NCBI GenBank assembly: GCA_965228875.1
Contig: OZ245843.1
Location: 4,384,616-4,448,615 of the forward strand
Source of the DNA: Thalassobaculaceae bacterium
GTDB taxonomy: Bacteria; Pseudomonadota; Alphaproteobacteria; Thalassobaculales; Thalassobaculaceae
Reading direction: 5' to 3'
Length of the DNA stretch: 64,000 nucleotides
A program made the position numbers and the translations under genes. Below are positions 45,256 to 61,885 of the stretch, in pieces; position 1 is the stretch's first letter; each line of letters starts with the position of its first letter. The notes under the pieces are model-generated. The model did no database searches, was not told the DNA's origin, and saw only the letters and a list, made by a program, of their open reading frames with translations.

Positions 45256-45846
45256 TCAGCCCGTCGGCCTGCGGTGTCGGGTGGTCAGCGCGCCGTCCGT
45301 GAGCGTGTAAACCGCGACCTGCTCCCCGGCATCCTCCTCGGCGACGAAGCCGGCCAGGGGGCCGAAGAACGGTGTCAGGGAATCCGGTGTACCGGTCTTC
45401 AGGAAAAGGTGCAGCGCCCTCGGATCGTAGTAGCGGAAGGCGAGGCTGCGCCCGTCCTCGGTCATCACGATGTTGAATTTCCGCAGGTGACGCCGCAGCG
45501 CCGTCAGCTCGAGCGGCGACAGGATGTAGATCCCCCAGGCCTGCCCCCAGCCGTCGCGCAGGAGCCAGTCGGCCAGCAGCGACCCCTCCTCGATTTCCAT
45601 CAGGTAGGGCGCGACTTCCGCAAGATCCTCGGCCAGTTCGCCCTGGTAGAGCGAACGGACCCCCGCGCCCGTTCCCTTCAGTTTGCGGTGGATCGCGGTG
45701 TCGCGGGCCGCATCCAATGCCGCGAACAGGCGCACGCCGCCGTTCCCCGATCGGGCGTCGCGCAGGATGTCGGCGAGCAACTGGCGTCGCGCCTCGATGA
45801 TGTTGCGGGAAGGGACGCCGGCATCCGGCGTGCCGATCATGCTCAT
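45256..45846 (-). CDS. DUF4123 T6SS effector chaperone/adaptor (Tap-1/TEC)
   Basis: LDAAR, SLY, APYL, WG, LRRHLR, FRYYDPR; overlaps the vgrG stop. Confidence 0.9.
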   Translation of the reverse strand: MSMIGTPDAGVPSRNIIEARRQLLADILRDARSGNGGVRLFAALDAARDTAIHRKLKGTGAGVRSLYQGELAEDLAEVAPYLMEIEEGSLLADWLLRDGWGQAWGIYILSPLELTALRRHLRKFNIVMTEDGRSLAFRYYDPRALHLFLKTGTPDSLTPFFGPLAGFVAEEDAGEQVAVYTLTDGALTTRHRRPTG

Positions 45847-47897
45847 GCGCCGGCCTCCCCGCAGATCTCGCAGAACGGAGTGCCCTTGACGGCGGCCTCG
45901 CGCAGGGCCGCGATCTGGCTGACGCGCTTGCGGGTGCCGGTACCCTTCGGCACGGTCTTCGGGCTGGTCAGGTCGGTCGTCGCACCCGGCTGGCCGTCAT
46001 CGGCTGCCGCGGGCGCGTCCGGCGCCTGCGGGTTTGCGCTCAGGCTGCCCGATGAGCCGCCGCTGTTGATGAGAACCATCGGGCCCTGGATGGTCACGCC
46101 GCTGGGCCCCAGCGTGATGAAGCCCGCGCCGGCCTTGATGGTCAGCATCATCCCGGCCTCGATCATCACCTCCATGCCGGCCTTCACCGCGTAGTTCGTA
46201 CCGGCCTTGGCGTGGAATTCCTGGGCGATGTCGAGGGAGTCGATACCGCCGATCCGGGTTGACCGGTCGCCACCGACATCTTCGTGCTGGTCGCCGCCGA
46301 CCTTCTCGAACCGATCGTTGACGACGGTCTCGTGATGCTGGTCGCCCACATGGCTCCGCAGCGTCTCCTTGATCCGGAGGTCCATGTCCTTCTGGCCGTG
46401 CACGAAGATCTGCTCGCTACCGGCCTTGTCCTCGAACCGCAATTCGTTGAACCCGCCGCCGCCGGGAGAGGAGTTCGTCTTGATCGTCGAGCGGGTCTTG
46501 TGACCGGGCGGATCGTAGACCGGTTCGTTGACGGCGTTGTGGACGACCCCGGTGATTAGCGGCCGGTCGGGATCTCCCTCCAGGAACGAGACGGCGACCT
46601 CCATGCCGATCCGCGGGATGAAGGTCTGGCCGAAGCGGATACCCGCCCATCCCTGGGCGACCCTGATCCAGCAGGAGCTCTTCTCGTCGTAGGCGCCGCG
46701 CCGATCCCAGTGAAACTGCACCTTCACCCGGCCGTGCCTGTCGACGTGGATCTCCTCGCCGCCCGGACCGGTGACGATGGCGGTCTGCAGGCCGTCGATC
46801 GTCGGTTTCGACGTGACCCGCGGAGCGCGGAACTGGGTGTCGGCGGGAATGCACTCGAAGGTCCCGCGGTATCGGGCGCCTCGCGGTTCGCCGAACTCCC
46901 AGTTGTTCTCCGCTTCGTGGGCGACGCGGGTGACAAGGTGGGAGACGTTGTAGCCTTCCACCTCGTGCTCGACGAGGTCGAAGGTGAAGCCTGGACAGAT
47001 GGTGAACTCGTTGGTGGTTCCGGTCCGCATCCGACTGCGCGCCTCGAGGGCCTCCATCCGGACCGAGGCGAAGGTGTCGCCGTCGCTCATCTCGCGGTAA
47101 CGGCCGGGATAGTCGAAGACCTCCAGATCCTGGGCCGCCGGCAGGCCGGCGTTCGATCCGATCCCGGCGATCAGCGAGGCCCGCGGCTTGAGCGGGTCGA
47201 AGTCGTTGAGCGTGACCCGGCCCGAGGTCACGCTTGCCACCTCCCGCCATTCCGACACGCCGGACTCGTCGTCCCCCATCTCCTGGCGGGCCGCCCGAAG
47301 GGTGGCGCCACCGGCGATCGGCTGGTGCGCCATGGCCGTGTCGGCGAGCACCAGCGTGTGCCGGTCGTCCTCATGCTCGAAGTAGTAGTAGATCCCCTCT
47401 TCCTCGAAGAGCCTGGACAGGAAGGCGAACGAGGTCTCGCGGTACTGGACGCAATAGGTCCGGTTGGCGAAGGCGCCGGACGTCTCGACGCGGAAATCGG
47501 TGAAGTTCATCTCGCCGAAGATCTCCTCGGCGATGGCGATCACGGATTTCTCCTGGAAGATCCTCGAGTCGGCCCGCAGCGACAGGAACCAGAACCAGGG
47601 ACGCAGCGTGAGGGAGTAATGGTGGACCTGGTCGCTCTGCCGATAGCCGTCATACTCGAAGGCGGCGACATACCCGTGAAAGTGCCGGTCGCGGCCCTCG
47701 ACCGTCGTCAGCGTCACCACCGCCGGCAGCCCGAGAATCTCCGACGGGTCCGCGATCGGATCGAGGGCGAAGGCCCGCACCCGGAACGCGAACAGTTCCG
47801 AGAGCGCTTCCTCGCCGGCCACCGATACGGCGAAGAGCCGGTCCGGTCCGAGCGGGGTGGCCATCCGCAGCAAATGGCTCGACTGGGCTCGATCCAT
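45843..47897 (-). CDS. vgrG: T6SS spike protein VgrG (TssI)
   Basis: GEEALSELF, CVQYRETSFAFLSRLFEEEGIYYYF, GRVKVQFHWDR, IPRIGMEV, NELRFED; C-terminal PFCEIC. Confidence 0.96.
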   Translation of the reverse strand: MDRAQSSHLLRMATPLGPDRLFAVSVAGEEALSELFAFRVRAFALDPIADPSEILGLPAVVTLTTVEGRDRHFHGYVAAFEYDGYRQSDQVHHYSLTLRPWFWFLSLRADSRIFQEKSVIAIAEEIFGEMNFTDFRVETSGAFANRTYCVQYRETSFAFLSRLFEEEGIYYYFEHEDDRHTLVLADTAMAHQPIAGGATLRAARQEMGDDESGVSEWREVASVTSGRVTLNDFDPLKPRASLIAGIGSNAGLPAAQDLEVFDYPGRYREMSDGDTFASVRMEALEARSRMRTGTTNEFTICPGFTFDLVEHEVEGYNVSHLVTRVAHEAENNWEFGEPRGARYRGTFECIPADTQFRAPRVTSKPTIDGLQTAIVTGPGGEEIHVDRHGRVKVQFHWDRRGAYDEKSSCWIRVAQGWAGIRFGQTFIPRIGMEVAVSFLEGDPDRPLITGVVHNAVNEPVYDPPGHKTRSTIKTNSSPGGGGFNELRFEDKAGSEQIFVHGQKDMDLRIKETLRSHVGDQHHETVVNDRFEKVGGDQHEDVGGDRSTRIGGIDSLDIAQEFHAKAGTNYAVKAGMEVMIEAGMMLTIKAGAGFITLGPSGVTIQGPMVLINSGGSSGSLSANPQAPDAPAAADDGQPGATTDLTSPKTVPKGTGTRKRVSQIAALREAAVKGTPFCEICGEAGA

Positions 47898-48060
47898 GTG
47901 AGGTCCGCTTCTCCCTGAGCCGGGTCTCGGTCGCATCATATCCAGGGCCGGGGGCCTCGGCCATAGATCGAATGTCTCGGGGTGGTGTAGCGCAAGTTGC
48001 GCGTTTCCTCTACAAGTTCCCCGGATCGTTGGGGTGGCAGTTCTTATTCTGGAGAGCACG

Positions 48061-50571
48061 ATGACCCGGAACGGTAGATCCTCAACCGCCACCGGCCGGA
48101 CCGGCCCGTTGGGGCGTGGCCTGCTCGTCGGGGCCGCCTTCCTTGTCGCCCTGGGGGTCGGTGTCCGAGTGTCTCCAGAAGGCGCCGCGACCGTCGCGGT
48201 CAGCACGGCCGAGGCCCAGGGGGCGAGGACGATGCTGCGCAACAGCAGCCGGGTGGTCCGCGACGCCATCCGCAACCAGATCCGCCAGGCGCTCACCGTG
48301 CGCCTGCGGGTCCAGGCGCCGCCGCGGGCGGAGGTCCAGCGGGTCGAATGGTCGTCGGACGGCACGATGGCCGCGGCCTTGCTCGCCGACGGATCGGGCG
48401 ACGTCTGGTTTCTCGATCAGGGCGCCACCCTGCGGCTGCCGGTTCTCGGGGCTCCGCCTTTCCGCGACGTCGTGCTCTCGCCGGGCGGCGGCGGGTTGGT
48501 GGCCGTGATCGACCGCGACGACCGGGTCGCGATCGCCACGCTCGGCGCCCCGGCGCGGCGCGGTCCGACCGATTTTCCGGGCGGTCGTCCGGTGGCGCTG
48601 ACGCCGCGCGGCGACCGCGCGGGCGTGCTGGTGTCCACCGTCGGCGGTACGGTGGTCGAGATCGGCGTCGACGGCTCCGCCAGGCGGCTCTGGTCCGCCG
48701 ATGGCGGTACCATCGACGGGATCGACGCCGATTCCGATGGAGACCGCGTCGTCGTGCATGCCGATGGCCGGGTCGTCGAGCTGGCGATCGGACCGTCAGG
48801 ACCGGCGACGGTCGAGGAAACCTGGCGGCTGACCGGCGTGCGGGATGTTGTCTATGCGGCCAGTGGCCCGGTGGCGCTCCTGGACGATGGGACGGTCCAT
48901 CGGCTGTCATCGGACGGCACCCGGTCCGCCGCCGAAAGTCCTGTGTCGGGAGACCGGCTTCTGGCGTCCGACGACGGCGCCTTCGCCGTGCTGACCGATG
49001 ACGGCGACGGGGCGGTCTGGCCCGGAACGGGGAATGCCCGACCGGCCCGCTTCGCCATCGGTGCCGAGAATGTTGCCGAGGCGACGCTGACTCCGGGCGC
49101 CGCGCTGGTGATGGTGCGGCGGGAGAATGGCTGGGTCGACGGACATGACGTTGCCACGGCGGCCGGCGGCCGGGTGCTGCGCATGGTCGCCACCCGCTCC
49201 GGCTGGGCCGCCGTGGATAGCCGCGGGCGCTATGACGGATCCTTGGACGCCCTCACGGAGGTCGGTTGGGGCGACGACGGCACCTTCATCGAGTTGGAGC
49301 GGTTCGCGGAACTGTATTTCGAGCCAGGCCTGGTTCGCCGCTACCTGGCGCGTCGGCGCGATTTTCTGACCGCGCCGCCGGAACCGATTGTCGACGACAC
49401 CGAGATCGCGGCGCCGCCGGAGGTGTCGGTGTCCGTGGACCGGGCGCCGGCCACGGCCGGACAGGCCCTCGTCGCCTCCGGATCCGTCACGTCCCCCGAA
49501 CCGGTGGTCGAGGTGCGGGTGTTCCACAACGGCCGCGCCCTGCCGCCCGAGGCGGTCGTCACCGGTACCAGTGACGACGGCGGTGTTCAGACGGTCACCG
49601 TGACGACCGACACGCAGGCGAGCGAGGGGGAGAACACCCTCCAGGTCGTTGCCCAGACCGAGTCCGGCCTGGTCACGGCATCCGATGTGCAGACGGTCAC
49701 GGTGGCGCCGCCGCCGGCCCCGCCTCCGGCACCCCGCCTGGTGGTCAAGAGTTTCGGGATCAACGACTACGCCAGCCCTGAGCTGAAACTGAATTTCGCC
49801 GCCGCCGACGCGGAGGCCATCGCCGACCGGTTCTCCCGGTCCGAGGTGTTCGAACCCTCCTACCGGACCAAGGACGTCTATCTGGATTCCAATGCCGGAC
49901 GGTCCACGATCCTCGGTCAGATGCAGAGCCTGCAGTCGCTTGGCGCCGACGATATGGCCGTCATCTTTCTGTCCGGTCACGGGGTGGCGACCCCTGACCT
50001 GGGCGACTGGTACTTCCTGCCCTACGAGGCCCGCAGCCTGAGCGATCTGGACCACATCGCCGGGGTCGGGATCAGCGACGGCTTTCTCGTCTCGGCGATC
50101 ACCGATCTCAAGGTCGACCGGGTGCTGCTGATGATAGATAGCTGCCAGTCCGGCGTGGTCGCCGACGAGTTCTCGCGCTACCGACAGCGCCGCTCCCTCA
50201 AGCGGATCGCCGACCGCACCGGAATACAGATCCTCACGGCGACCCGGCCCGACCAGCTAGCACTGGAGGTGCGCGAACTCGGCCATGGCCTCTTCGCCTA
50301 TGTCGTGCTTGCCGCGCTCGATCGCGACTCGCGCGGACGCTACCGCGCCGATCTGGGGCCGATCGACGGACGTGTCTCGGTCGCCGAACTGAGGTCCTAC
50401 GTCGAGACGAACGTACCGGTGGTGGCCCAGACACTGATGGAGGCGATGGGTCGCAGCGGACAGGGAACGCAGGTCGCCTCGGCTGCATCCACCCGGACCC
50501 GCGGCGGCGCCGGGACGAGCGTGGTGATGCCGGTCTCGGCGGCCTATGGCCGGAACTTCACTGTCTACTGA
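48061..50571 (+). CDS. Exported beta-propeller + Ig-like + caspase-family (C14) protease
   Basis: Hydrophobic N-terminus, WD40-like repeats, GINDY...LNFAAADA, FLSGHG (His 49978) and IDSCQSG (Cys 50143), LGHGLFAY. Confidence 0.88.
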   Translation: MTRNGRSSTATGRTGPLGRGLLVGAAFLVALGVGVRVSPEGAATVAVSTAEAQGARTMLRNSSRVVRDAIRNQIRQALTVRLRVQAPPRAEVQRVEWSSDGTMAAALLADGSGDVWFLDQGATLRLPVLGAPPFRDVVLSPGGGGLVAVIDRDDRVAIATLGAPARRGPTDFPGGRPVALTPRGDRAGVLVSTVGGTVVEIGVDGSARRLWSADGGTIDGIDADSDGDRVVVHADGRVVELAIGPSGPATVEETWRLTGVRDVVYAASGPVALLDDGTVHRLSSDGTRSAAESPVSGDRLLASDDGAFAVLTDDGDGAVWPGTGNARPARFAIGAENVAEATLTPGAALVMVRRENGWVDGHDVATAAGGRVLRMVATRSGWAAVDSRGRYDGSLDALTEVGWGDDGTFIELERFAELYFEPGLVRRYLARRRDFLTAPPEPIVDDTEIAAPPEVSVSVDRAPATAGQALVASGSVTSPEPVVEVRVFHNGRALPPEAVVTGTSDDGGVQTVTVTTDTQASEGENTLQVVAQTESGLVTASDVQTVTVAPPPAPPPAPRLVVKSFGINDYASPELKLNFAAADAEAIADRFSRSEVFEPSYRTKDVYLDSNAGRSTILGQMQSLQSLGADDMAVIFLSGHGVATPDLGDWYFLPYEARSLSDLDHIAGVGISDGFLVSAITDLKVDRVLLMIDSCQSGVVADEFSRYRQRRSLKRIADRTGIQILTATRPDQLALEVRELGHGLFAYVVLAALDRDSRGRYRADLGPIDGRVSVAELRSYVETNVPVVAQTLMEAMGRSGQGTQVASAASTRTRGGAGTSVVMPVSAAYGRNFTVY

Positions 50572-51493
50572 AGCCTGCCCCGCCGAGGCCCGCCGGCTTG
50601 CGCCGTCGGCACCGGGCCCGAGCACGCGAGGCCACCGGCCGGCAGGTTGGTGGGGCCTGCTGGGGGTGGCGATCGCCATCACAATGGCAGTGTCGGCCTG
50701 TACGGGGGGCGGCGATCGGGCCGTGAGCCGCGGAGGCCTGCATGCGCGCGCGACCGAAGCCGGGTTTCGGGATCTCGGCGCCGCGCGGGTCGGGTTGCCG
50801 CTGGTGGCCTATCTACGGGATAGAGCCGGTGGTTCGGCGCCCCCGCATCGCCTGACGGTGTATATCGAAGGCGACGGCGCCGCCTGGCGCACCCGGACGC
50901 GGGTGTCCGACAATCCGACCCCGCGCGATCCCGTCGCTCTGGCGCTTGCGATCCGACAGCCTTCCGGTTCGTCGGCCTATGTCGGCCGACCCTGCCAGTA
51001 CGTGAACCTCGCCGGGGTCTTCTGCCCGGCCTCATTCTGGACCGACGGCCGTTACGGCCGGGAGGCCGTTGCCCTCGTCGGGCGCGCGGTCGATCTTGCG
51101 ATGGCGGCCGCCGGCGCCGACGAGGCCGTTCTGGTCGGGTTTTCCGGCGGCGGAACGCTTGCCACCCTGCTTGCCGCCACGCGCGACGACGTCGTTCACC
51201 TCATCACCGTCGCGGCGCCGCTGGACATTTACGGGTGGACGGGGTTCCACGGCGTGTCGCCGCTCGCCGCCTCGCTCGATCCGCTCGACTACATGGCCGC
51301 GCTGTCGGCCGTCGCCCAGGATCACTTCGAGGGAGGCTCGGACGCGGTCGTCCCGCCCCGGGTCAATGACCGCTTCTTCGAGCGGTCGCGTACGGCGACG
51401 GTGATGCGGCACCGCATGGCTGAGTTCGATCACACGTGCTGCTGGGCCGAAGCCTGGCCGTCCCTATACGGTCGCGTCGTCCGGAGGCGATAG
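50546..51493 (+). CDS. Alpha/beta-hydrolase lipoprotein
   Basis: Lipobox VSAC, VYIEGDG, GFSGGG nucleophile elbow, DAVVP, FDHTCCW; start uncertain. Confidence 0.85.
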   Translation: MAGTSLSTEACPAEARRLAPSAPGPSTRGHRPAGWWGLLGVAIAITMAVSACTGGGDRAVSRGGLHARATEAGFRDLGAARVGLPLVAYLRDRAGGSAPPHRLTVYIEGDGAAWRTRTRVSDNPTPRDPVALALAIRQPSGSSAYVGRPCQYVNLAGVFCPASFWTDGRYGREAVALVGRAVDLAMAAAGADEAVLVGFSGGGTLATLLAATRDDVVHLITVAAPLDIYGWTGFHGVSPLAASLDPLDYMAALSAVAQDHFEGGSDAVVPPRVNDRFFERSRTATVMRHRMAEFDHTCCWAEAWPSLYGRVVRRR

Positions 51494-51576
51494 CGATGGC
51501 ACGGCGCCGCCATTCCATTTGAACGGCCTGAGCAAAGCCGTGTAAGGTTGAGTTGCCACCATCTGTTGCGTACTGC

Positions 51577-51606
51577 CGGTCGTCCTCGGGGCGGTCGTCC
51601 TCGGGG
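51577..51606. repeat. Perfect tandem 15-bp direct repeat
   Basis: CGGTCGTCCTCGGGG x2 immediately upstream of the GTG start at 51615. Confidence 0.85.
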
Positions 51607-51614
51607 GGACACAC

Positions 51615-53546
51615 GTGCGGTCCAGAGCCAGGCCTTATGACGTTCCGGACCTCAAGGTTCATCTGACCTATCAGTCCGAGGTCGATGGTCGAGAGGTCGA
51701 ACTGCCGTTCGTCGTCGGCGTGGTCGGCGCGTTCCGCGGGGAACGGGACGATGCCCGTGAACCGGTGTATGAGCGCGAGTTCGAGGACGTCTCCGAGCGC
51801 GGTGTGGATGTTCTGCTGGCGCGGTGGAAGCCGCAGGTCAGTGTCGCGGTGCCCGACCGGGCGGGCGGTGGCGCGCAGGCGGTAGCGCTGCGCTTCGCCG
51901 GCTTGAAGGACTTTCAACCCGAGGCTTTGATCCGCCAGGTGCCGGCGCTCGCCGATGACCATCGGACCCGCGACATTCTCGTCGATCTGAGGGATCGCCT
52001 GATGACCGCGGCCGGGCCGCGCCGTATGGCCTATGGCGCCGGAACGCTGGCGGACGATACCGTCTCGGAGGACGACGCCGCGCTTGTGGAGATCCTGGCG
52101 ACGGCGGTGGATGCAGCCCGCGCCGCGTCGCCGCGCACCCCGGAATACCGGGAGACCATCGACCGGGCGGTGGACGGAATCCTGGCCGGGATCGGCGACC
52201 TGTCGGTACGAACGGTCATGGAGGCGATCGACCTCGACGTCGCGGAGATCGACGCGGCGTTGTCGCGGCGGTGCGATGCGATCCTGCACGATCCCGGGTT
52301 CCAGCGGTTGGAGGCGCTCTGGAGAGGTGTGGACCTGCTGGTCCGCCGCGGCGATTCCGACCCGCTCGTCATCGTGAAGGTGCTCGACCTCACCCGCGAG
52401 GAACTGGAACAGGATCTGTCGACCCACATCGCGCCGGACGACTTCCAGCGCGCCGCCGTTCTCGATTCCACGCTCTTCCGGATCATCTATTCAGAGGAGT
52501 TCGGCCAGTTCGGCGGCCACCCGTTCGGCCTGATCCTGCTGGACGAGTACATCACGCCCGCCGCGACGGATGTCCGCTTGGCCGAGCGTCTGGCCACGAT
52601 CGGCGAGGCGGCCCATTGCCCGGTCATCGCCGCTGCCGCGCCGGAGATGTTCGGAATCCCGGCGTACTCCGACCGCGATTGGGGGCACGGCGATCTGCGG
52701 TCGCTCTTCGGCGAGGCCCGCTACGCCGAATGGCGGGCCCTGCGTCAGAACCCCGTGTCGCGATATCTGGGTCTGGTCCTCCCGCGGTTTCTGCTGCGCG
52801 ACCCCTATCGGTCGGCCGGACGCCAGACCATGCCCTTCGACTTCGAGGAAAAGGTGGCCGACGGGGACGGTCTGCTCTGGGGCAATGGCGCCTTCGCCTT
52901 CGCCCTGACGGTGGTTTCGGCTTTTGCGCGCTACCGGTGGTGCACGGCGATCACCGGTCTGGAGGGTGGCGGGGCGGTGAGCGGGCTCGTCGCGCCGGAC
53001 TACGGCACCGACGAGGGCGCCCACGTCTTCCGTCGCGCCACCGAGAGGGTGATCTCGACCCGTCACGAGCGCGATCTCGCGGTGGCCGGGTTCATACCGC
53101 TGGTGCAGCGGCCGGGTCAGGCCGAGCCGGTGTTCTGTTCGGCCTTCTCGGTCAACCTGCCGTCGGGGCGCCTGGGCATGGATCCGATGTCGGAGCGGCT
53201 TTCGGCGCGCCTGCCCTACATGTTCGCCGCATCGCGTATCGCTCACTACGTCAAGGCCAACATGCGGGAGCGGATCGGCGGTCAGGCGAGCATGAGCCGG
53301 CTTCAGTCCAACGTCAGCCGCTGGATCTCCCAGTATGTGGCCTATCAGGACGACGTGGACGACGAGGTCAAGGCGGAGCGTCCGCTACGCGATGCCCGCG
53401 TCACCGTCCTTCCCTCGGAAGACGAGCCGGGACGGTTTACTTTCCGTATGGAGGTCCAGCCGCATTTTCAACTCGAGGAAATGGGGATAAATTTGGTCGT
53501 CGGCCGGCTGGCGGAGAGCGTCGAGGACAACCAGGGCGGGCATTAG
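51615..53546 (+). CDS. tssB-tssC: Fused T6SS contractile sheath protein TssB-TssC (VipA-VipB)
   Basis: aa ~12-130 TssB motifs (VHLTY, ELPFVVGVVGAF, F.GLKDFQPE.LIRQVPAL); then TssC motifs (EIDAALS...ILHDPGFQRLEALWRG, YSEEFGQFGG.PFG, LPRFLLRDPY, LWGN, RLPYMF..SRIAHYVK, RPLRDA, PHFQLE) with no stop between. Confidence 0.9.
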   Translation: MRSRARPYDVPDLKVHLTYQSEVDGREVELPFVVGVVGAFRGERDDAREPVYEREFEDVSERGVDVLLARWKPQVSVAVPDRAGGGAQAVALRFAGLKDFQPEALIRQVPALADDHRTRDILVDLRDRLMTAAGPRRMAYGAGTLADDTVSEDDAALVEILATAVDAARAASPRTPEYRETIDRAVDGILAGIGDLSVRTVMEAIDLDVAEIDAALSRRCDAILHDPGFQRLEALWRGVDLLVRRGDSDPLVIVKVLDLTREELEQDLSTHIAPDDFQRAAVLDSTLFRIIYSEEFGQFGGHPFGLILLDEYITPAATDVRLAERLATIGEAAHCPVIAAAAPEMFGIPAYSDRDWGHGDLRSLFGEARYAEWRALRQNPVSRYLGLVLPRFLLRDPYRSAGRQTMPFDFEEKVADGDGLLWGNGAFAFALTVVSAFARYRWCTAITGLEGGGAVSGLVAPDYGTDEGAHVFRRATERVISTRHERDLAVAGFIPLVQRPGQAEPVFCSAFSVNLPSGRLGMDPMSERLSARLPYMFAASRIAHYVKANMRERIGGQASMSRLQSNVSRWISQYVAYQDDVDDEVKAERPLRDARVTVLPSEDEPGRFTFRMEVQPHFQLEEMGINLVVGRLAESVEDNQGGH

Positions 53547-53674
53547 GGACGGGCGATACCGGACAGGCCGGGATCGGTCGGGCCCGGCCCGCCCGGATCC
53601 GATACCGAAGACGGGGCGGCGCAGCGCACGTGTCGCGTCGAACCGACCATCTTGCTGGGACGAGACCATAGGCC

Positions 53675-54181
53675 ATGGCGTATTCCGCTTTCGTGCAGTT
53701 CGAGGGGATCGAGGCGACCACGTACGACCCACGGTATCCGGGTGCGGCCCGGCTCATCGCCTTCGACCAGATCATGCAGCAGCCGACCGCGGGCTCGGCG
53801 GTCGCCGGCGGGGAGGCGACGGCCGGGCGGGTCGATCATGGCGACTTCAACCTCGTGAAGGCGATCGACGCGGCCAGCCCGATCCTGTCGCTGTACTGCA
53901 GTTCGGGTGCGATCGTCTCGAAGGTGACGATCTCGGTCGCCGAGGAGTCGGAGGATCTGCTGCCGTTCTACGAATTCGTTCTCGACCGTGTGCTGGTACG
54001 CTCGATCCAGCCGGCGCTGAAACTTGAGTTCGGGCACGCCAACGAAGCGATTGCCCCGTACGAGACGATCAGCCTACGGTACCAGAAAGTCACATGGCGC
54101 TATACGTTCCTCGACAATGACGAGAGTGGCCGGGGAAGCATCCAGCACTACTGGGACCTCTACAAGAACCGAGGATCCTAG
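53675..54181 (+). CDS. hcp: T6SS tube protein Hcp (TssD)
   Basis: GRVDHGDFNLVKAIDAASPIL, ETISLRYQKVTWRY, WDLYKN. Confidence 0.92.
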   Translation: MAYSAFVQFEGIEATTYDPRYPGAARLIAFDQIMQQPTAGSAVAGGEATAGRVDHGDFNLVKAIDAASPILSLYCSSGAIVSKVTISVAEESEDLLPFYEFVLDRVLVRSIQPALKLEFGHANEAIAPYETISLRYQKVTWRYTFLDNDESGRGSIQHYWDLYKNRGS

Positions 54182-54304
54182 AGCACGAGCGGTTCGATCT
54201 TGTCCGTGAACCGTCCTCTAACGCATTGAAGACAGGGTAGAGTCACACGATCGGACGTCTTCATGTGATCGTGGTCTGCGCTGGCGGGTTTCGAGGGATA
54301 TGCG

Positions 54305-54793
54305 ATGGACTACTATCTTAATCTGCCGTCCCTGGTCGACTCGCTGATCGACGACGCGCCGGATCAGCCGTGGGACGGTTTCGAGCCTCCGTCCCTCGCC
54401 CGTCTGGAGCAGTGCCTGCGGCGTGACCTCGAGGAACTGCTGAACAGCCAGGCCCTCTTTCCGCGGTTCCAGGGGCGCCATGCGGATCTTGCCAGGACGA
54501 CCGTCGCCTTCGGGCTGAGCGACCTCTATCGGGTCAACCCGTCGAGCCGGCAGCACCGTGAACGGCTGCGCCGCGAGATCGAGGAGAAGATCGCGACCTT
54601 CGAGCCACGGCTCCATGACGTTCGCGCCCTTGAGGTGCAGATGGCGCCGGGCAACGAACTGCGGCTCGAGTTCCGCGTCGAGGGGACGTTGCGGTTCATG
54701 CGGGAGGAGGTGCCGATCTCCCTCTCGGCTCGACTGAACGCGGCGGATAACCGGGTGGTTATTCATCGTTTCGCCGCAGGGGATGGACGGTGA
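54305..54793 (+). CDS. tssE: T6SS baseplate TssE (gp25-like)
   Basis: PSLVDSLID, RRDLEELLN, FGLSDL, FEPRL. Confidence 0.92.
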   Translation: MDYYLNLPSLVDSLIDDAPDQPWDGFEPPSLARLEQCLRRDLEELLNSQALFPRFQGRHADLARTTVAFGLSDLYRVNPSSRQHRERLRREIEEKIATFEPRLHDVRALEVQMAPGNELRLEFRVEGTLRFMREEVPISLSARLNAADNRVVIHRFAAGDGR

Positions 54794-56673
54794 GCGGAAA
54801 ACTCTTCGACTATTATCAGACGGAACTGGACAAGCTGCGCGACTACGGCGAGCGGTTCGCCGAGGAGTATCCCAAGGTTGCCGGCCGGCTGCAGCTTTCT
54901 CGGACGGCCGCCGCCGATCCGCATGTCGAGCGCCTGATCGAGTCCGTGGCGCTGATATCGGCCCGCCTGCAGCTCAAGATCGACGATGACTTCTCCCGGG
55001 TCTCCGAGGCGCTGCTGGAGCACATCCATCCGCACCTCGCGCGCCCGGTTCCGTCCTGCACGATCGTCCGCTTCGAACCCGATGCGGCGTCGATGTCCGG
55101 CGAGATGGAGGTTCCCAAAGGGGCGATGCTGTCGTCGGTCGCCCTGCGGTCCTCCGTGGAGATGGCCGGGCTCTCCTGTCAGTTCCTCACCGTGTATCCG
55201 ACTCAACTGCTGCCGGTCGCGATCGACGCGGTGTCGTTCGCACCGGTGCGCGGCGCCTCGCTGGTATCGGGAGACGAGGTGGTCGACGGCGTCCTGTCGA
55301 TCTCGTTGAGCCGGCCCGGCGCGGCGGCGCTCGGCGACCTGGACGTTTCGCGTCTGCGGCTGTTCGTCGACGGCGAGGCCGACACGGCCAACATGCTCTA
55401 CGAGATGCTGATGTCGGCATCCGTCGGCGTCTTCGTCAGGACCGAGGGCCCGGATGGGCCGCAGACGCGGCGGCTCAGGGATGCGGGTTTCGAGCCGGTC
55501 GGCTTCGCCGCCGAGGATGCGCTGCTGCAGTACGACGCGCGCTCCCATGCGGGCTACCGGATGCTCCAGGAGTTCCTCGTGTTTCCGGAGAAATTCCGGT
55601 TCGTGGACCTGGTCGTGCCGGGCGGGCTGTTTCTCGACGAGCGAGCGACGGCCGAGATCCTTATCACCACCGCTCCGTTCCCGAGACAGGAGTGGGCGTC
55701 CCGGCTCTATGGCCGGATCGGTACGCGCAATCTGCAACTCGGTTGCACGCCGGCGGTCAACCTCTTTCCGGTGTCCGCCCAGCCGATCCGGATCGAACCC
55801 GGCAGGGAGAGGTACCCGGTGCTTCCGGACACGCGGCGGGCGCGCGGCATGGAGATCCAGGCGATCCGGGAGGTCATGGTCGTGCGCCGCGGCGGTACCG
55901 TGCGCCGGCAGCGGCTCGTGCCGCTGTTCGGGGTTCCCGATCCGCATGCGGTCGCGGACCATGGTGGGGCGCCGGCGGACGCGCTGCCGCGCTGGACCTA
56001 CGAGCGGGAGCCGGCGGTCGCGGGCGAGGGAGACCAGCACTTTCTGTGGCTGATCGATCCGGACCTGGCGGTGCTGTCCCATGGCGATGCCGTTGCGTCC
56101 GTCGAGGCGTACTGTTCGAACGGTGACCTGCCGGCGATGCTGCCGTTCGGGAATCCGGCCGGCGATTTCAGCTACGGAGAGAACGTTCCGGTCCTGGCGA
56201 TCACTTGCGTGACCAGGCCGACCCAGACGGTTCGACGGGCGCGCAACGACGGTGAGTTCTGGCGCCTGGTGTCGAACCTGACGCTGAACTACACATCGCT
56301 GGTCGATGCCGGTGGGCTGGGCCTGCGGCAGATCCTCCAGGCCCACAACCTGTTCGATCCCGGCGTGATGCCGGGAGAAAACGCCGAGGCGTCGCGGATG
56401 ATCGACGGCATTACCGGCGTATCGGTGGAGCGGGCGGTCGAGCGCATGGGCTCCGCGGCGCGCCGCGCCTTCGTTCAGGGCGCGCGGATCCGGCTGACGC
56501 TGGACGAGGCGGCGTTCCCCGGGAGCGCGTACCTGTTCGCCGCGGTGATGGAGCGGTTCCTGTCGGTGCTCGCCGGCGGCAACAGCTTCACCCAATTGGT
56601 GGCGAAATCCACCCAACGCGAGAAGGAGATCGGCGCATGGCCATGCCGCGCGGGCGACTTCCCGATCGTATAG
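54790..56673 (+). CDS. tssF: T6SS baseplate TssF
   Basis: YYQTEL...FAEEYPKVAGRL, DPHVERLIE, GYRMLQEF..FPEKF, LGCTPAVNLF, WRLVSNLTLNY, NSFTQL. Confidence 0.96.
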   Translation: MSGKLFDYYQTELDKLRDYGERFAEEYPKVAGRLQLSRTAAADPHVERLIESVALISARLQLKIDDDFSRVSEALLEHIHPHLARPVPSCTIVRFEPDAASMSGEMEVPKGAMLSSVALRSSVEMAGLSCQFLTVYPTQLLPVAIDAVSFAPVRGASLVSGDEVVDGVLSISLSRPGAAALGDLDVSRLRLFVDGEADTANMLYEMLMSASVGVFVRTEGPDGPQTRRLRDAGFEPVGFAAEDALLQYDARSHAGYRMLQEFLVFPEKFRFVDLVVPGGLFLDERATAEILITTAPFPRQEWASRLYGRIGTRNLQLGCTPAVNLFPVSAQPIRIEPGRERYPVLPDTRRARGMEIQAIREVMVVRRGGTVRRQRLVPLFGVPDPHAVADHGGAPADALPRWTYEREPAVAGEGDQHFLWLIDPDLAVLSHGDAVASVEAYCSNGDLPAMLPFGNPAGDFSYGENVPVLAITCVTRPTQTVRRARNDGEFWRLVSNLTLNYTSLVDAGGLGLRQILQAHNLFDPGVMPGENAEASRMIDGITGVSVERAVERMGSAARRAFVQGARIRLTLDEAAFPGSAYLFAAVMERFLSVLAGGNSFTQLVAKSTQREKEIGAWPCRAGDFPIV

Positions 56674-60475: not shown

Positions 60476-61885
60476 ATGACCGAACGACGTAGCCTTCTGG
60501 ACGTGTTCACCCCGGTGATGCTGGACGTCCTCGATGTCGAGGATGGCCTCGCCCGGGGCGATGGCAGCGTGCCCTCGGCGGAGCAGAAGACGGAGGAATG
60601 GCTGGCGACGATCGACGAGGCGGTCGCCACGGCCGAACGCCTCGGCCACAGCAGCCAGAACGCAGAGATCGCCAAGCGTGCCGTGATCGCCTGGATCGAC
60701 GACATCATGGGGCTCCGGCGGGACTGGTACGGCCGGGTCACCAACCTTCAGTCCCGCGTGTACAACGGCGCCTCGGTGCTCGGCCGAAAGTTCTACGAGG
60801 ACCTGGAGGCCCTCAGCAAGGACAGTCAGAGAGACGTCTTCGACGTGTTCTTCGTCTGCCTCGCCCTCGGCTTCAAGGGAGAGAAGCTCCTGTACGCCGG
60901 ATCCGACGTGGACCGCGAGGCGGCCCGCCTCAAGCAGGATGTCAGTTTCCACCTGTCGACGGACCGCATCGATCTCGACAGGCTGCCCGGCCAGAAGATC
61001 TTCGCCCAGCCCTATCAGCAGGACGACCCGCCGCCGCCGCCGCCGGGCCCGCCTCTGCCGCGATCCTATGGCAAGATCCTTGCTGCGCTGGCGGCGGTTC
61101 TGTTGCTGGCGGCGATCGGCGCCGGGTACTGGCTGACCCGGAGCGAGACCGACTGGCGGGCGCATATCCAGGCGGCGGCCGAGGAGGCGGTTGGGCGCTA
61201 CGAATGCGCCAGCGTCTCGGTCCGGACGGCGCCGGACCTGTCGCTGTCCTACAAGGGTTTCGTCGGGTCGGAGGACGATCGCGGCGCGCTCGAGGCGGAC
61301 CTGCTGGGCATCGAGCGGGTGGAGCGGGTCACCGGCACGCTTGAGGTCATGCCTTGGCCGCTTTGCGCCGTGCTTGTGATCCTGGAGGATACGGTGCTCA
61401 ACGACGGTTCCCGGTCGGAGACTCCGACGGTTGCGGTCAACCATCGTGACGGGAGGTATCGTCACCGCGACCTCCTGGTCACTGACGTGACGGTGCCGGC
61501 GGCGGAGCCCGGTCACCTTCTGGTCAGCTATGTCGGGCAGGCGGACACCGTCACCCATCTGTTCCCGAACGAAGACGTCGTTTCCAGCCGGGCCGATCCG
61601 AAGATGCGATTGCGCCTCGGATACGCGGAAGGCGCGGCCTCCGATGCCGGCGGGTACGATGTGCAGACCAACCTCATGTATCCGCTGTCGGCGGACCCCG
61701 AAGGGCCCAGTCTGGTGTTCGCTGTCTGGAGCGCGGAACCGATCCTCGACGGCTTCGCGCCGGTGTCGCAGCAGCGGACCGACGAGTTCCTTGCGGCGCT
61801 CCGCGCGGCTGTGGATGCGTCCAATGCGTCGGACGACGCCGCCAGGCTCTATGCCCGCACGGTGACGATCACCGTGGCCCGGTAG
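60476..61885 (+). CDS. tssL: TssL/DotU fused to a periplasmic Cys-pair + DUF4384-like module
   Basis: AVIAWIDD, LQ..YN....G.KFYE.L, VFFVCLALGFKG; poly-Pro, TM, then a non-OmpA periplasmic region. Confidence 0.85.
   Translation: MTERRSLLDVFTPVMLDVLDVEDGLARGDGSVPSAEQKTEEWLATIDEAVATAERLGHSSQNAEIAKRAVIAWIDDIMGLRRDWYGRVTNLQSRVYNGASVLGRKFYEDLEALSKDSQRDVFDVFFVCLALGFKGEKLLYAGSDVDREAARLKQDVSFHLSTDRIDLDRLPGQKIFAQPYQQDDPPPPPPGPPLPRSYGKILAALAAVLLLAAIGAGYWLTRSETDWRAHIQAAAEEAVGRYECASVSVRTAPDLSLSYKGFVGSEDDRGALEADLLGIERVERVTGTLEVMPWPLCAVLVILEDTVLNDGSRSETPTVAVNHRDGRYRHRDLLVTDVTVPAAEPGHLLVSYVGQADTVTHLFPNEDVVSSRADPKMRLRLGYAEGAASDAGGYDVQTNLMYPLSADPEGPSLVFAVWSAEPILDGFAPVSQQRTDEFLAALRAAVDASNASDDAARLYARTVTITVAR

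Follow-up and report, generated by a model that had tools for sequence, protein, structure and literature searches.

A natural TssB-TssC fusion as the probable single-chain sheath protomer of a type VI secretion system without its own ClpV

[quoted passage not shown] Both sheath domains are found on one intact and conserved open reading frame (ORF) inside a T6SS cluster. It is quite likely that the product is a single-chain TssBC protomer, with the two subunits joined head to tail, which serves a second T6SS without a ClpV gene of its own. An earlier note, made from the letters of this DNA, had proposed a natural in-frame fusion that forms a one-polypeptide sheath protomer. Pfam and NCBIfam scans, an AlphaFold2 (AF2) model, fold matches, the gene context, diverged fused homologs and independent assemblies all bear this out. 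Coordinates below are positions in the window, and residue numbers (amino acids, aa) are those of the 643-aa window protein unless said otherwise. The gene and its parts are as follows.

51615..53546 (+), tssBC, the fused T6SS sheath gene; GTG start, 643 aa; VipA, VipB and VipB_2 on one chain
51642..52010 (+), TssB (VipA) part, aa 10-132; PF05591, 84.3 bits, covering 4-130 of the 155 profile positions
52011..52235 (+), inter-domain segment, aa 133-207; last part of the TssB helix, short connector and TssC-type N-terminal helices, in the outer domain
52032..52067 (+), connector loop, aa 140-151; non-helical in the AF2 model, where blocks 131-140 and 141-150 have mean predicted local distance difference test (pLDDT) values of 73 and 56
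52236..53153 (+), TssC core (VipB domain), aa 208-513; PF05943, 294.4 bits, E 1e-87
53190..53495 (+), TssC C-terminal gpW/gp25-like domain (VipB_2), aa 526-627; PF18945, 115.7 bits

The VipA and VipB models of Pfam match the same ORF in one frame, as the earlier note had expected. The T6SS_VipA score of 84.3 bits (E 1e-23) stands far over its cut-off of 24. The TssC equivalog TIGR03355 (NCBIfam) covers aa 178-628 at 405.5 bits, over its cut-off of 271.5. TssC motifs continue to the C-terminal PHFQLE, also as predicted, and this motif is conserved in the alignment of fused forms. The gene occupies a single frame with high GC content at third codon positions (GC3 0.83), open from stop to stop at 51552-53546, and its codon bias is that of real genes in DNA of 69% GC, the value of this genome. 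A purine-rich stretch, GGGGGGA, lies 5 nt upstream of the GTG. The promoter and terminator scan of 51300-54400 was uninformative, returning 0 and 0 sites. Thus the protein has the TssB domain, the TssC core with the gp25-like domain, the fold, and the hcp and baseplate neighbours of the T6SS sheath family. It departs from the two-polypeptide heterodimer in being one ORF with no stop or frameshift.

The integrity of the junction is supported by sequences from other studies. The gene was found in public runs of 13 studies; no RNA run is among those listed, which says nothing about expression either way. Contigs from four runs of four studies show only substitutions over 51400-53700, with 0 inserted or deleted letters. 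Two of these runs, X4 and X11, each gave one contig across the whole gene, with 27 and 31 substitutions and 0 gaps. The X1 contig is identical to the window and may be its source, and X2 covers the gene in pieces. No stop is created by any of the 40 listed substitutions (19 further differences are outside the listing). Among the listed substitutions inside the ORF, 6 of 17 (X2), 7 of 23 (X4) and 9 of 25 (X11) change a residue. An indel or a stop at the junction, by which the earlier note would have abandoned the fusion, is therefore seen neither in the contigs of the four studies nor among the listed substitutions.

Homologs of the same architecture, for which the earlier note had suggested looking, were found in a search of a collection of 5.8 billion proteins, from which the best 120 matches were listed. 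The top five are fused: P0001 (99% identity, 643 aa), P0002 (58%, 625 aa), P0003 (57%, 644 aa), P0004 (34%, 937 aa) and P0005 (33%, 629 aa). P0046 (34%, 554 aa) is likewise fused among the matches listed. The other 114 of the 120 contain only the two TssC domains, and nearly all of them are 488-498 aa long. An alternative is that there are two genes in truth, which only look fused through an assembly or sequencing artefact or because this strain alone has lost the stop codon of tssB. This genome has a high GC content, and at 3 of 80 pattern-selected genome loci one open frame does span tssB and tssC by chance in high-GC DNA. In the window, unlike at those three loci, VipA shares the reading frame of VipB. 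The contigs of four studies have no indels, P0001 comes from another assembly and is also 643 aa long, and P0002 and P0003 are fused at little more than half identity. This alternative is close to refuted.

The AF2 model of tssBC, built on an 80-row alignment, has a pLDDT of 89.5 and a predicted template modelling score (pTM) of 0.91. The best nine Foldseek matches are TssC/VipB/IglB chains of T6SSs, with template modelling (TM) scores normalised to the target of 0.80-0.87 and E values of 3e-31 to 4e-23. By sequence, eight solved TssC-type chains match aa ~201-632 and nine TssB-type chains match aa 10-129; none of these 17 matching chains contains both parts. It is predicted with high confidence that the chain folds like the solved sheath subunits, with the join inside the helical segment formed by the TssB tail and the TssC N-terminus. 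The structure prediction for which the earlier note had called is thus in agreement with a sheath protomer. The interlocking elements at the N-terminus and the C-terminus are conserved in the alignment of fused forms.

The earlier note had described a joining segment of ~75 aa, helical and acidic. Its helical nature is supported by the model: the TssB helix at 110-139 is long, and helices 152-169, 176-192, 198-224 and 227-246 are confident (block pLDDT 84-96 for the first three). It is not a new linker, and the real connector, of low confidence in the model, is only aa ~140-151. When fused forms are aligned with the split TssB and TssC of this genome, the N-terminus of the split TssC is placed inside aa ~133-207. 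The distance between the two cores, defined by hidden Markov models of both, is 77 aa in the window protein. At split loci (117 of 120 examined), the TssB tail plus the TssC N-terminus amounts to 85-188 aa, with a median of 107 and 85-127 aa in 110 of the 117; these distances rest on a rough estimate of where TssC begins in split pairs, which counts against the comparison. The segment in the window is thus ~30 aa shorter than its split-pair equivalent. Because the genome's own TssC N-terminus aligns within it and its length is below that median, the segment is a shortened native outer-domain region, consisting of the TssB tail and TssC N-terminal helices, rather than an added linker.

Both cores were present in 134 of 169 proteins examined, and their inter-core distance ranges from 1 to 335 aa with a median of 80. 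The inter-core segment is far more variable in length in fused sheaths than in split ones. Variation is also observed inside the TssB part. In the 781-aa fused TssBC of genome G472 (L245:9727-12069, plus strand), the TssB core contains an interruption of ~130 aa, with model positions 1-80 at aa 17-99 and positions 82-126 at aa 231-275 of that protein.

Fused sheaths are not rare, contrary to the suggestion of the earlier note. A search of 1.84 billion cluster representatives with a profile made from seven fused proteins gave 11,289 matches, and the best 150 were classed. Of these 150, at least the 89 that match in a single stretch from profile position 30 or before to position 600 or beyond, with lengths of 603-2151 aa, are fused. 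The rest are 42 representatives of at least 539 aa with two or more stretches, 16 that resemble TssC alone and 3 unclear ones. N-terminal extensions over 100 aa are present in 23 of the 89 end-to-end fused representatives. Extensions of 100 to ~1000 aa precede the TssB part in, for example, P0004 (937 aa), P0124 (1106 aa) and P0129 (2151 aa). When just the TssB part (aa 1-140) served as query in a word-indexed search, P0001 and P0002 were the sole matches, and this approach is too insensitive to count fusions.

In 400 genomes drawn evenly from the class of the window, VipA was found in 78, and a frame of 635-690 aa was found in 13 of the 78. All 12 candidates that were fetched, with 29-50% GC, have all three Pfam domains in one ORF; in the thirteenth (G039), the match to aa 14-627 of the window protein lies within one 641-aa ORF. 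In a second sample of 400 genomes from the phylum, VipA was found in 74, and three of five long-frame candidates are truly fused (G702, G422 and G472), the other two being chance frames. The 80 pattern-selected metagenome loci comprise 26 fused loci, of which 22 are nearly identical to each other, 46 split loci and 8 with TssC only. Among these loci, no close relative of the window type was found, the identity being only 30-42%. The 80 pattern-selected genome loci include no fusion: 62 are split, 15 have the TssC part only and 3 are chance frames without VipA. The patterns used for these genome loci target the PHFQLE subtype, which is mostly split. The window type was not found in 10 other genomes of the genus.

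Two side observations concern these samples. The 22 near-identical fused TssBC (L172-L211) are 734-737 aa long with a GC content of ~0.62, several of their contigs are labelled gut metagenomes, and no ClpV-like ORF is present within 10 kb. In one genome of 64% GC, a 1719-aa ORF (L122:3953-9112, plus strand; G117:C71) combines two VipA stretches with a VipB match; a canonical tssB and ClpV are a few kb away, and the ORF may be either a giant fusion or a frame open by chance.

The genome consists of one contig of 4,964,776 bp and contains three sheath loci, namely the window cluster, cluster 1 and cluster 3. Cluster 1, at ~1.93-1.95 Mb, is canonical, with split tssB (165 aa) and tssC (495 aa), tssE, tssF, tssG, ClpV and hcp, together with tssJ, tssK, tssL and a TssM of 1217 aa. 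Cluster 3, at ~4.52-4.55 Mb, has TssA, a second fused TssBC, hcp, tssE, tssF, vgrG, tssK, DotU and a partial TssM, and no ClpV was seen in it. Its fused gene (L016:13827-16289, minus strand; G000:C1, ~4.534-4.536 Mb) encodes 820 aa with VipA at 46-178, VipB at 390-694 and VipB_2 at 705-814. A 222-aa insert rich in Ala, Glu and Lys separates the two cores. The partial TssM of cluster 3 (L017:3-1724, minus strand, 574 aa) covers model positions 148-498 of 1168. Both fused-sheath clusters have only an N-terminal piece of TssM (345 aa in the window and 574 aa in cluster 3) and no TssJ was seen in them, against the 1217-aa TssM and TssJ of cluster 1. The membrane complex of the two fused-sheath systems may therefore differ. 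In cluster 3, a 761-aa ORF without a family match (L016:17678-19963) adjoins the partial TssM.

Beside cluster 1, divergent from the canonical tssB, lies a degenerate fused paralog of 593 aa (L018:18209-19990, plus strand; G000:C1, ~1940208-1941989). It has a weak VipA match at its aa 24-111 (46.7 bits), a VipB match at aa 295-493 (99.8 bits) and no match to VipB_2. In G093 and G099, similar weak VipA matches occur in frames of ~611-617 aa in the neighbourhood of canonical T6SS genes, and a frame of 687 aa is found near those of G004. A conserved accessory protein derived from the sheath is one possible reading of this degenerate type.

A tree of the TssC part was built from 107 picked rows. 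Of the 89 single-stretch representatives, 45 are among the 65 fused rows, in which the 42 multi-stretch ones have no part. The 42 split rows consist of the TssC of this genome, 14 of the 16 representatives that resemble TssC alone, 12 of the 114 TssC-only matches and 15 of the 80 genome loci. On this tree the fused label needs 12 changes, and at least 5 of them are forced by well-supported branches, suggesting that fusion or fission occurred at least five times. The window protein belongs to a small, all-fused clade with P0002 and P0003 and then P0217, P0260 and P0264, with support of 98-100. The cluster 3 sheath is found in a different clade of 43 rows, together with all forms from small genomes. 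The position of the two fused sheaths in different clades implies separate origins for the two within this genome.

ClpV was defined as a match to TIGR03345 over the curated cut-off, and in metagenome loci as an ORF with at least 400 bits to the ClpV of this genome. By this definition the genome has a single ClpV (1183.8 bits, C1:1930290-1932956), which is in cluster 1 beside the split tssB and tssC. In the class sample, ClpV was found in 0 of 13 fused genomes versus 35 of 65 split-only genomes; 5 of the 13 are without even a full-length ClpB-like match. In the phylum sample, the counts are 0 of 2 fused-only versus 66 of 71 split-only genomes. All 15 fused-only genomes of the two samples are therefore without ClpV. 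In both genomes that have the two kinds of sheath, ClpV is beside the split pair; in G702, the split tssB is ~7 kb away from it and the fused gene ~64 kb. A ClpV-like ORF was present at 0 of 26 fused versus 30 of 46 split metagenome loci, and, among loci of at least 18 kb, at 0 of 10 versus 28 of 28. Fisher's test of fusion against ClpV gave p = 3e-4, which is not relied on as the genomes are related. The safest statement is that no fused sheath examined has its own ClpV, which is a correlation among related genomes and not a demonstration.

[quoted passage not shown] In the fused chain, the position of this docking helix is internal, at aa ~152-169. That ClpV recycling could be altered or lost through the fusion, as suggested earlier, agrees with the data to the extent that no ClpV accompanies the fused loci or fused-only genomes examined; the effect on recycling itself is left at the level of correlation.

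A mechanism can be proposed on this basis. The fused chain would polymerise around the Hcp tube on the baseplate of TssE, TssF, TssG, TssK and VgrG, and the fused protomer would contract like the two-protein sheath, since the interlocking N-terminal TssB strand and the C-terminal TssC domain are retained. Turnover of the fused sheath would be independent of a dedicated ClpV. The spent sheath may be removed otherwise, by general chaperones or proteases, by dilution through growth, or possibly by the ClpV of cluster 1. More widely, split tssB and tssC would be kept where ClpV recycles the sheath, and lineages without ClpV would be unconstrained, leading to repeated fusion and to drift in the length of the docking segment. 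We put forward the general form of this idea only tentatively, and it may well not hold: the two-gene split is maintained by ClpV recycling, which needs a free and conserved TssC N-terminal helix; loss of ClpV leads to repeated fusion, after which the docking domain shrinks, expands or gains inserts; and fused TssBC represents a widespread ClpV-independent class of T6SS, either single-shot or recycled by chaperones.

The genes around tssBC in the window are as follows.

45256..45846 (-), DUF4123 protein beside vgrG; PF13503, 103 bits; presumably an effector adaptor, the usual reading of this family
45843..48365 (-), vgrG (tssI); Phage_GPD, Gp5_trimer_C and Phage_base_V; TIGR03361, 591 bits
(-), OmpA-family gene, in the T6SS neighbourhood with the DUF4123 gene and vgrG
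48034..50571 (+), 845-aa protein with a caspase (Peptidase_C14) domain; PF00656, 41.3 bits; between vgrG and tssBC
50546..51493 (+), alpha/beta-hydrolase-like protein; weak Abhydrolase_1 match, 21.4 bits, under the cut-off; directly upstream of tssBC
53675..54181 (+), hcp (tssD), tube protein; PF05638, 81.9 bits
54305..54793 (+), tssE; PF04965; TIGR03357, 77.3 bits, over the cut-off
54790..56673 (+), tssF; PF05947, 549 bits; TIGR03359, 523 bits
56637..57785 (+), tssG; PF06996, 190 bits
57778..59250 (+), tssK; PF05936, 203 bits
59372..60409 (+), short TssM-like protein, 345 aa, N-terminal part only; IcmF-related_N, 113.9 bits; TIGR03348, 121.9 bits, under the cut-off of 388
60476..61885 (+), tssL (DotU family), 469 aa; PF09850, 65.6 bits; TIGR03349, 53.9 bits

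Compared with the canonical T6SS-i of 13 core genes (TssA-M), the window cluster has TssE, TssF, TssG, TssK, VgrG and TssL, and it has no dedicated ClpV, full-length TssM, TssJ or TssA. ClpV, TssA and TssJ were not found among the ORFs scanned in the window and the 18 kb downstream, and neither ImpA_N nor SciN matched the window ORFs scanned; small ORFs were scanned only in part. The TssM-like protein spans positions 68-363 of 1168 of TIGR03348. The caspase-domain protein and the hydrolase-like protein are possible T6SS cargo or accessory proteins.

Several points weigh against a working single-chain sheath that is independent of ClpV. A second tree has 66 rows: from the class genomes with split sheaths, a chosen 24 of the 30 without ClpV and 16 of the 35 with ClpV (minus two short sequences), to which fused forms and references were added. 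In it, one clade of 41 rows contains all 13 fused forms of the class sample and the cluster 3 sheath (14 rows). This clade is interleaved: genomes with ClpV stand behind 6 of its 27 split forms versus 0 of its 14 fused forms, and 21 split forms are ClpV-less. ClpV absence therefore marks the lineage beyond its fused members. As for the long metagenome loci, the 10 fused ones are near-copies from a single lineage, and a single synteny is common to the 28 split ones. The ClpV counts cover neither the neighbourhood of P0002 nor that of P0003, the closest fused relatives. The one ClpV present in this genome might also act in trans. The TssB equivalog TIGR03358 (NCBIfam) matches aa 10-130 at 74.7 bits, under its cut-off of 97.25, which indicates a divergent TssB part, and the window protein is on a long branch in the TssC-part tree. 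Finally, the ORFs scanned contain neither TssA nor TssJ and, of TssM, just the N-terminal third, so that the cluster could be incomplete or dependent on cluster 1.

The last three of these points, the divergent TssB part, the long branch, and the missing or short components, also speak for a decaying or re-purposed paralog that no longer builds a firing sheath, with its cluster in the course of losing genes (ClpV, TssA and TssJ missing, TssM truncated). The failure to find it in 10 other genomes of the genus, and the presence in the same genome of a clearly degenerate fused paralog without VipB_2, point in the same direction. We consider decay unlikely, however, because each of the three sheath domains is complete and the fold is predicted with high confidence, most differences between strains are synonymous, and nine core genes are intact and co-oriented. 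The combination of a short TssM and a fused sheath also recurs in cluster 3, which suggests a working variant design rather than decay.

The resident ClpV raises another alternative, a functional fused sheath whose recycling would be carried out in trans by the cluster 1 ClpV, docking on the internal helix at aa ~152-169. The genome has one ClpV, and a helix is kept where the canonical TssC N-terminus aligns. On the other hand, according to the passages of PMC5048182 cited above, ClpV1 and ClpV2 from the same E. coli strain cannot replace each other, and each binds no TssC helix but its own. The absence of any ClpV from 15 of 15 fused-only genomes implies that fused sheaths do not generally need it, and the docking segment ranges over 1-335 aa among fused forms. 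Complex prediction with the N-domain of the cluster 1 ClpV (aa 1-190) and window aa 135-215 gave a score of 0.00 and no answer, which is evidence neither way. Recycling in trans is thus possible but improbable, and turnover of the single-chain sheath without a dedicated ClpV remains the preferred reading.

In reviews and structural papers, the T6SS sheath is presented as a heterodimer of two proteins, as in the cited section of PMC9230969. No description of a natural TssB-TssC fusion was found in the full-text literature, with subscription journals and supplements outside the scope of the search. The "fused VipA" in the relevant lines of PMC5797969 is a GFP (green fluorescent protein) tag and not a natural fusion. 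Other matches to such phrases appear to concern tags, the complex of the two proteins or concatenated sequences. The JGI annotation of the fused proteins is ImpC only. As they are labelled TssC/ImpC alone, surveys that require separate tssB and tssC, or ClpV, may misjudge these systems. The fused architecture is visible to anyone browsing domain databases.

Natural one-chain sheaths are common, polyphyletic and without ClpV in every case examined. This pattern gives a testable answer to the question of why the T6SS sheath is split and the sheaths of phages and extracellular contractile injection systems (eCIS) are not, and it points to many T6SSs whose disassembly must differ. Its value lies more in the wider pattern than in the window gene, which is one example among many. 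A single cell with one split, ClpV-linked system and two fused, ClpV-less systems is a convenient natural comparison. If the proposal is true, fused TssBC would mark a widespread and unstudied class of ClpV-independent T6SS, with a canonical system and two independently derived fused ones side by side in this genome.

The canonical TssB/TssC (VipA/VipB; PDB 3J9G, 5MXN, 5URW, 5N8N and 9N4V) share with tssBC the same three Pfam domains in the same order, the fold, with the target-normalised TM scores given above, and the neighbours hcp, tssE, tssF, tssG and tssK. They differ in being two polypeptides rather than one, in a longer segment between the cores (by ~30 aa), and in their ClpV, which is lacking in the window cluster. 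The T6SS of Holosporales endosymbionts (PMC8163844) resembles the window cluster in that its core genes are listed without ClpV. In the sections of that paper considered here, tssB and tssC are separate genes in a [tssB-tssC-hcp] unit and no word beginning with "fus" occurs. The window protein, moreover, belongs to a different, deep and all-fused clade. In the large fused clade of the trees, split ClpV-less sheaths are interspersed that come from small genomes of the same class as the window, and it is our guess that these small genomes are Holosporales.

The IglA/IglB sheath of the Francisella T6SS-ii is made of two proteins, and its sequence similarity to the window protein is much lower (157.8 bits vs ~289 for VipB). 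T6SS-ii is not known to have a ClpV and uses the general chaperone ClpB for disassembly. The sheath (PDB 3J9O) has the same fold, at Foldseek rank 9. In phage T4 gp18, R-pyocins, Afp/PVC and other eCIS, the protomer is one polypeptide and there is no ClpV recycling, as proposed for tssBC. These single-chain sheaths are, however, distant fold matches (TM 0.25-0.33, normalised to the query) and are not VipA/VipB-family sequences (7-12% identity). Judging from its nested position among split forms, fused TssBC is a secondary re-joining within the T6SS family.

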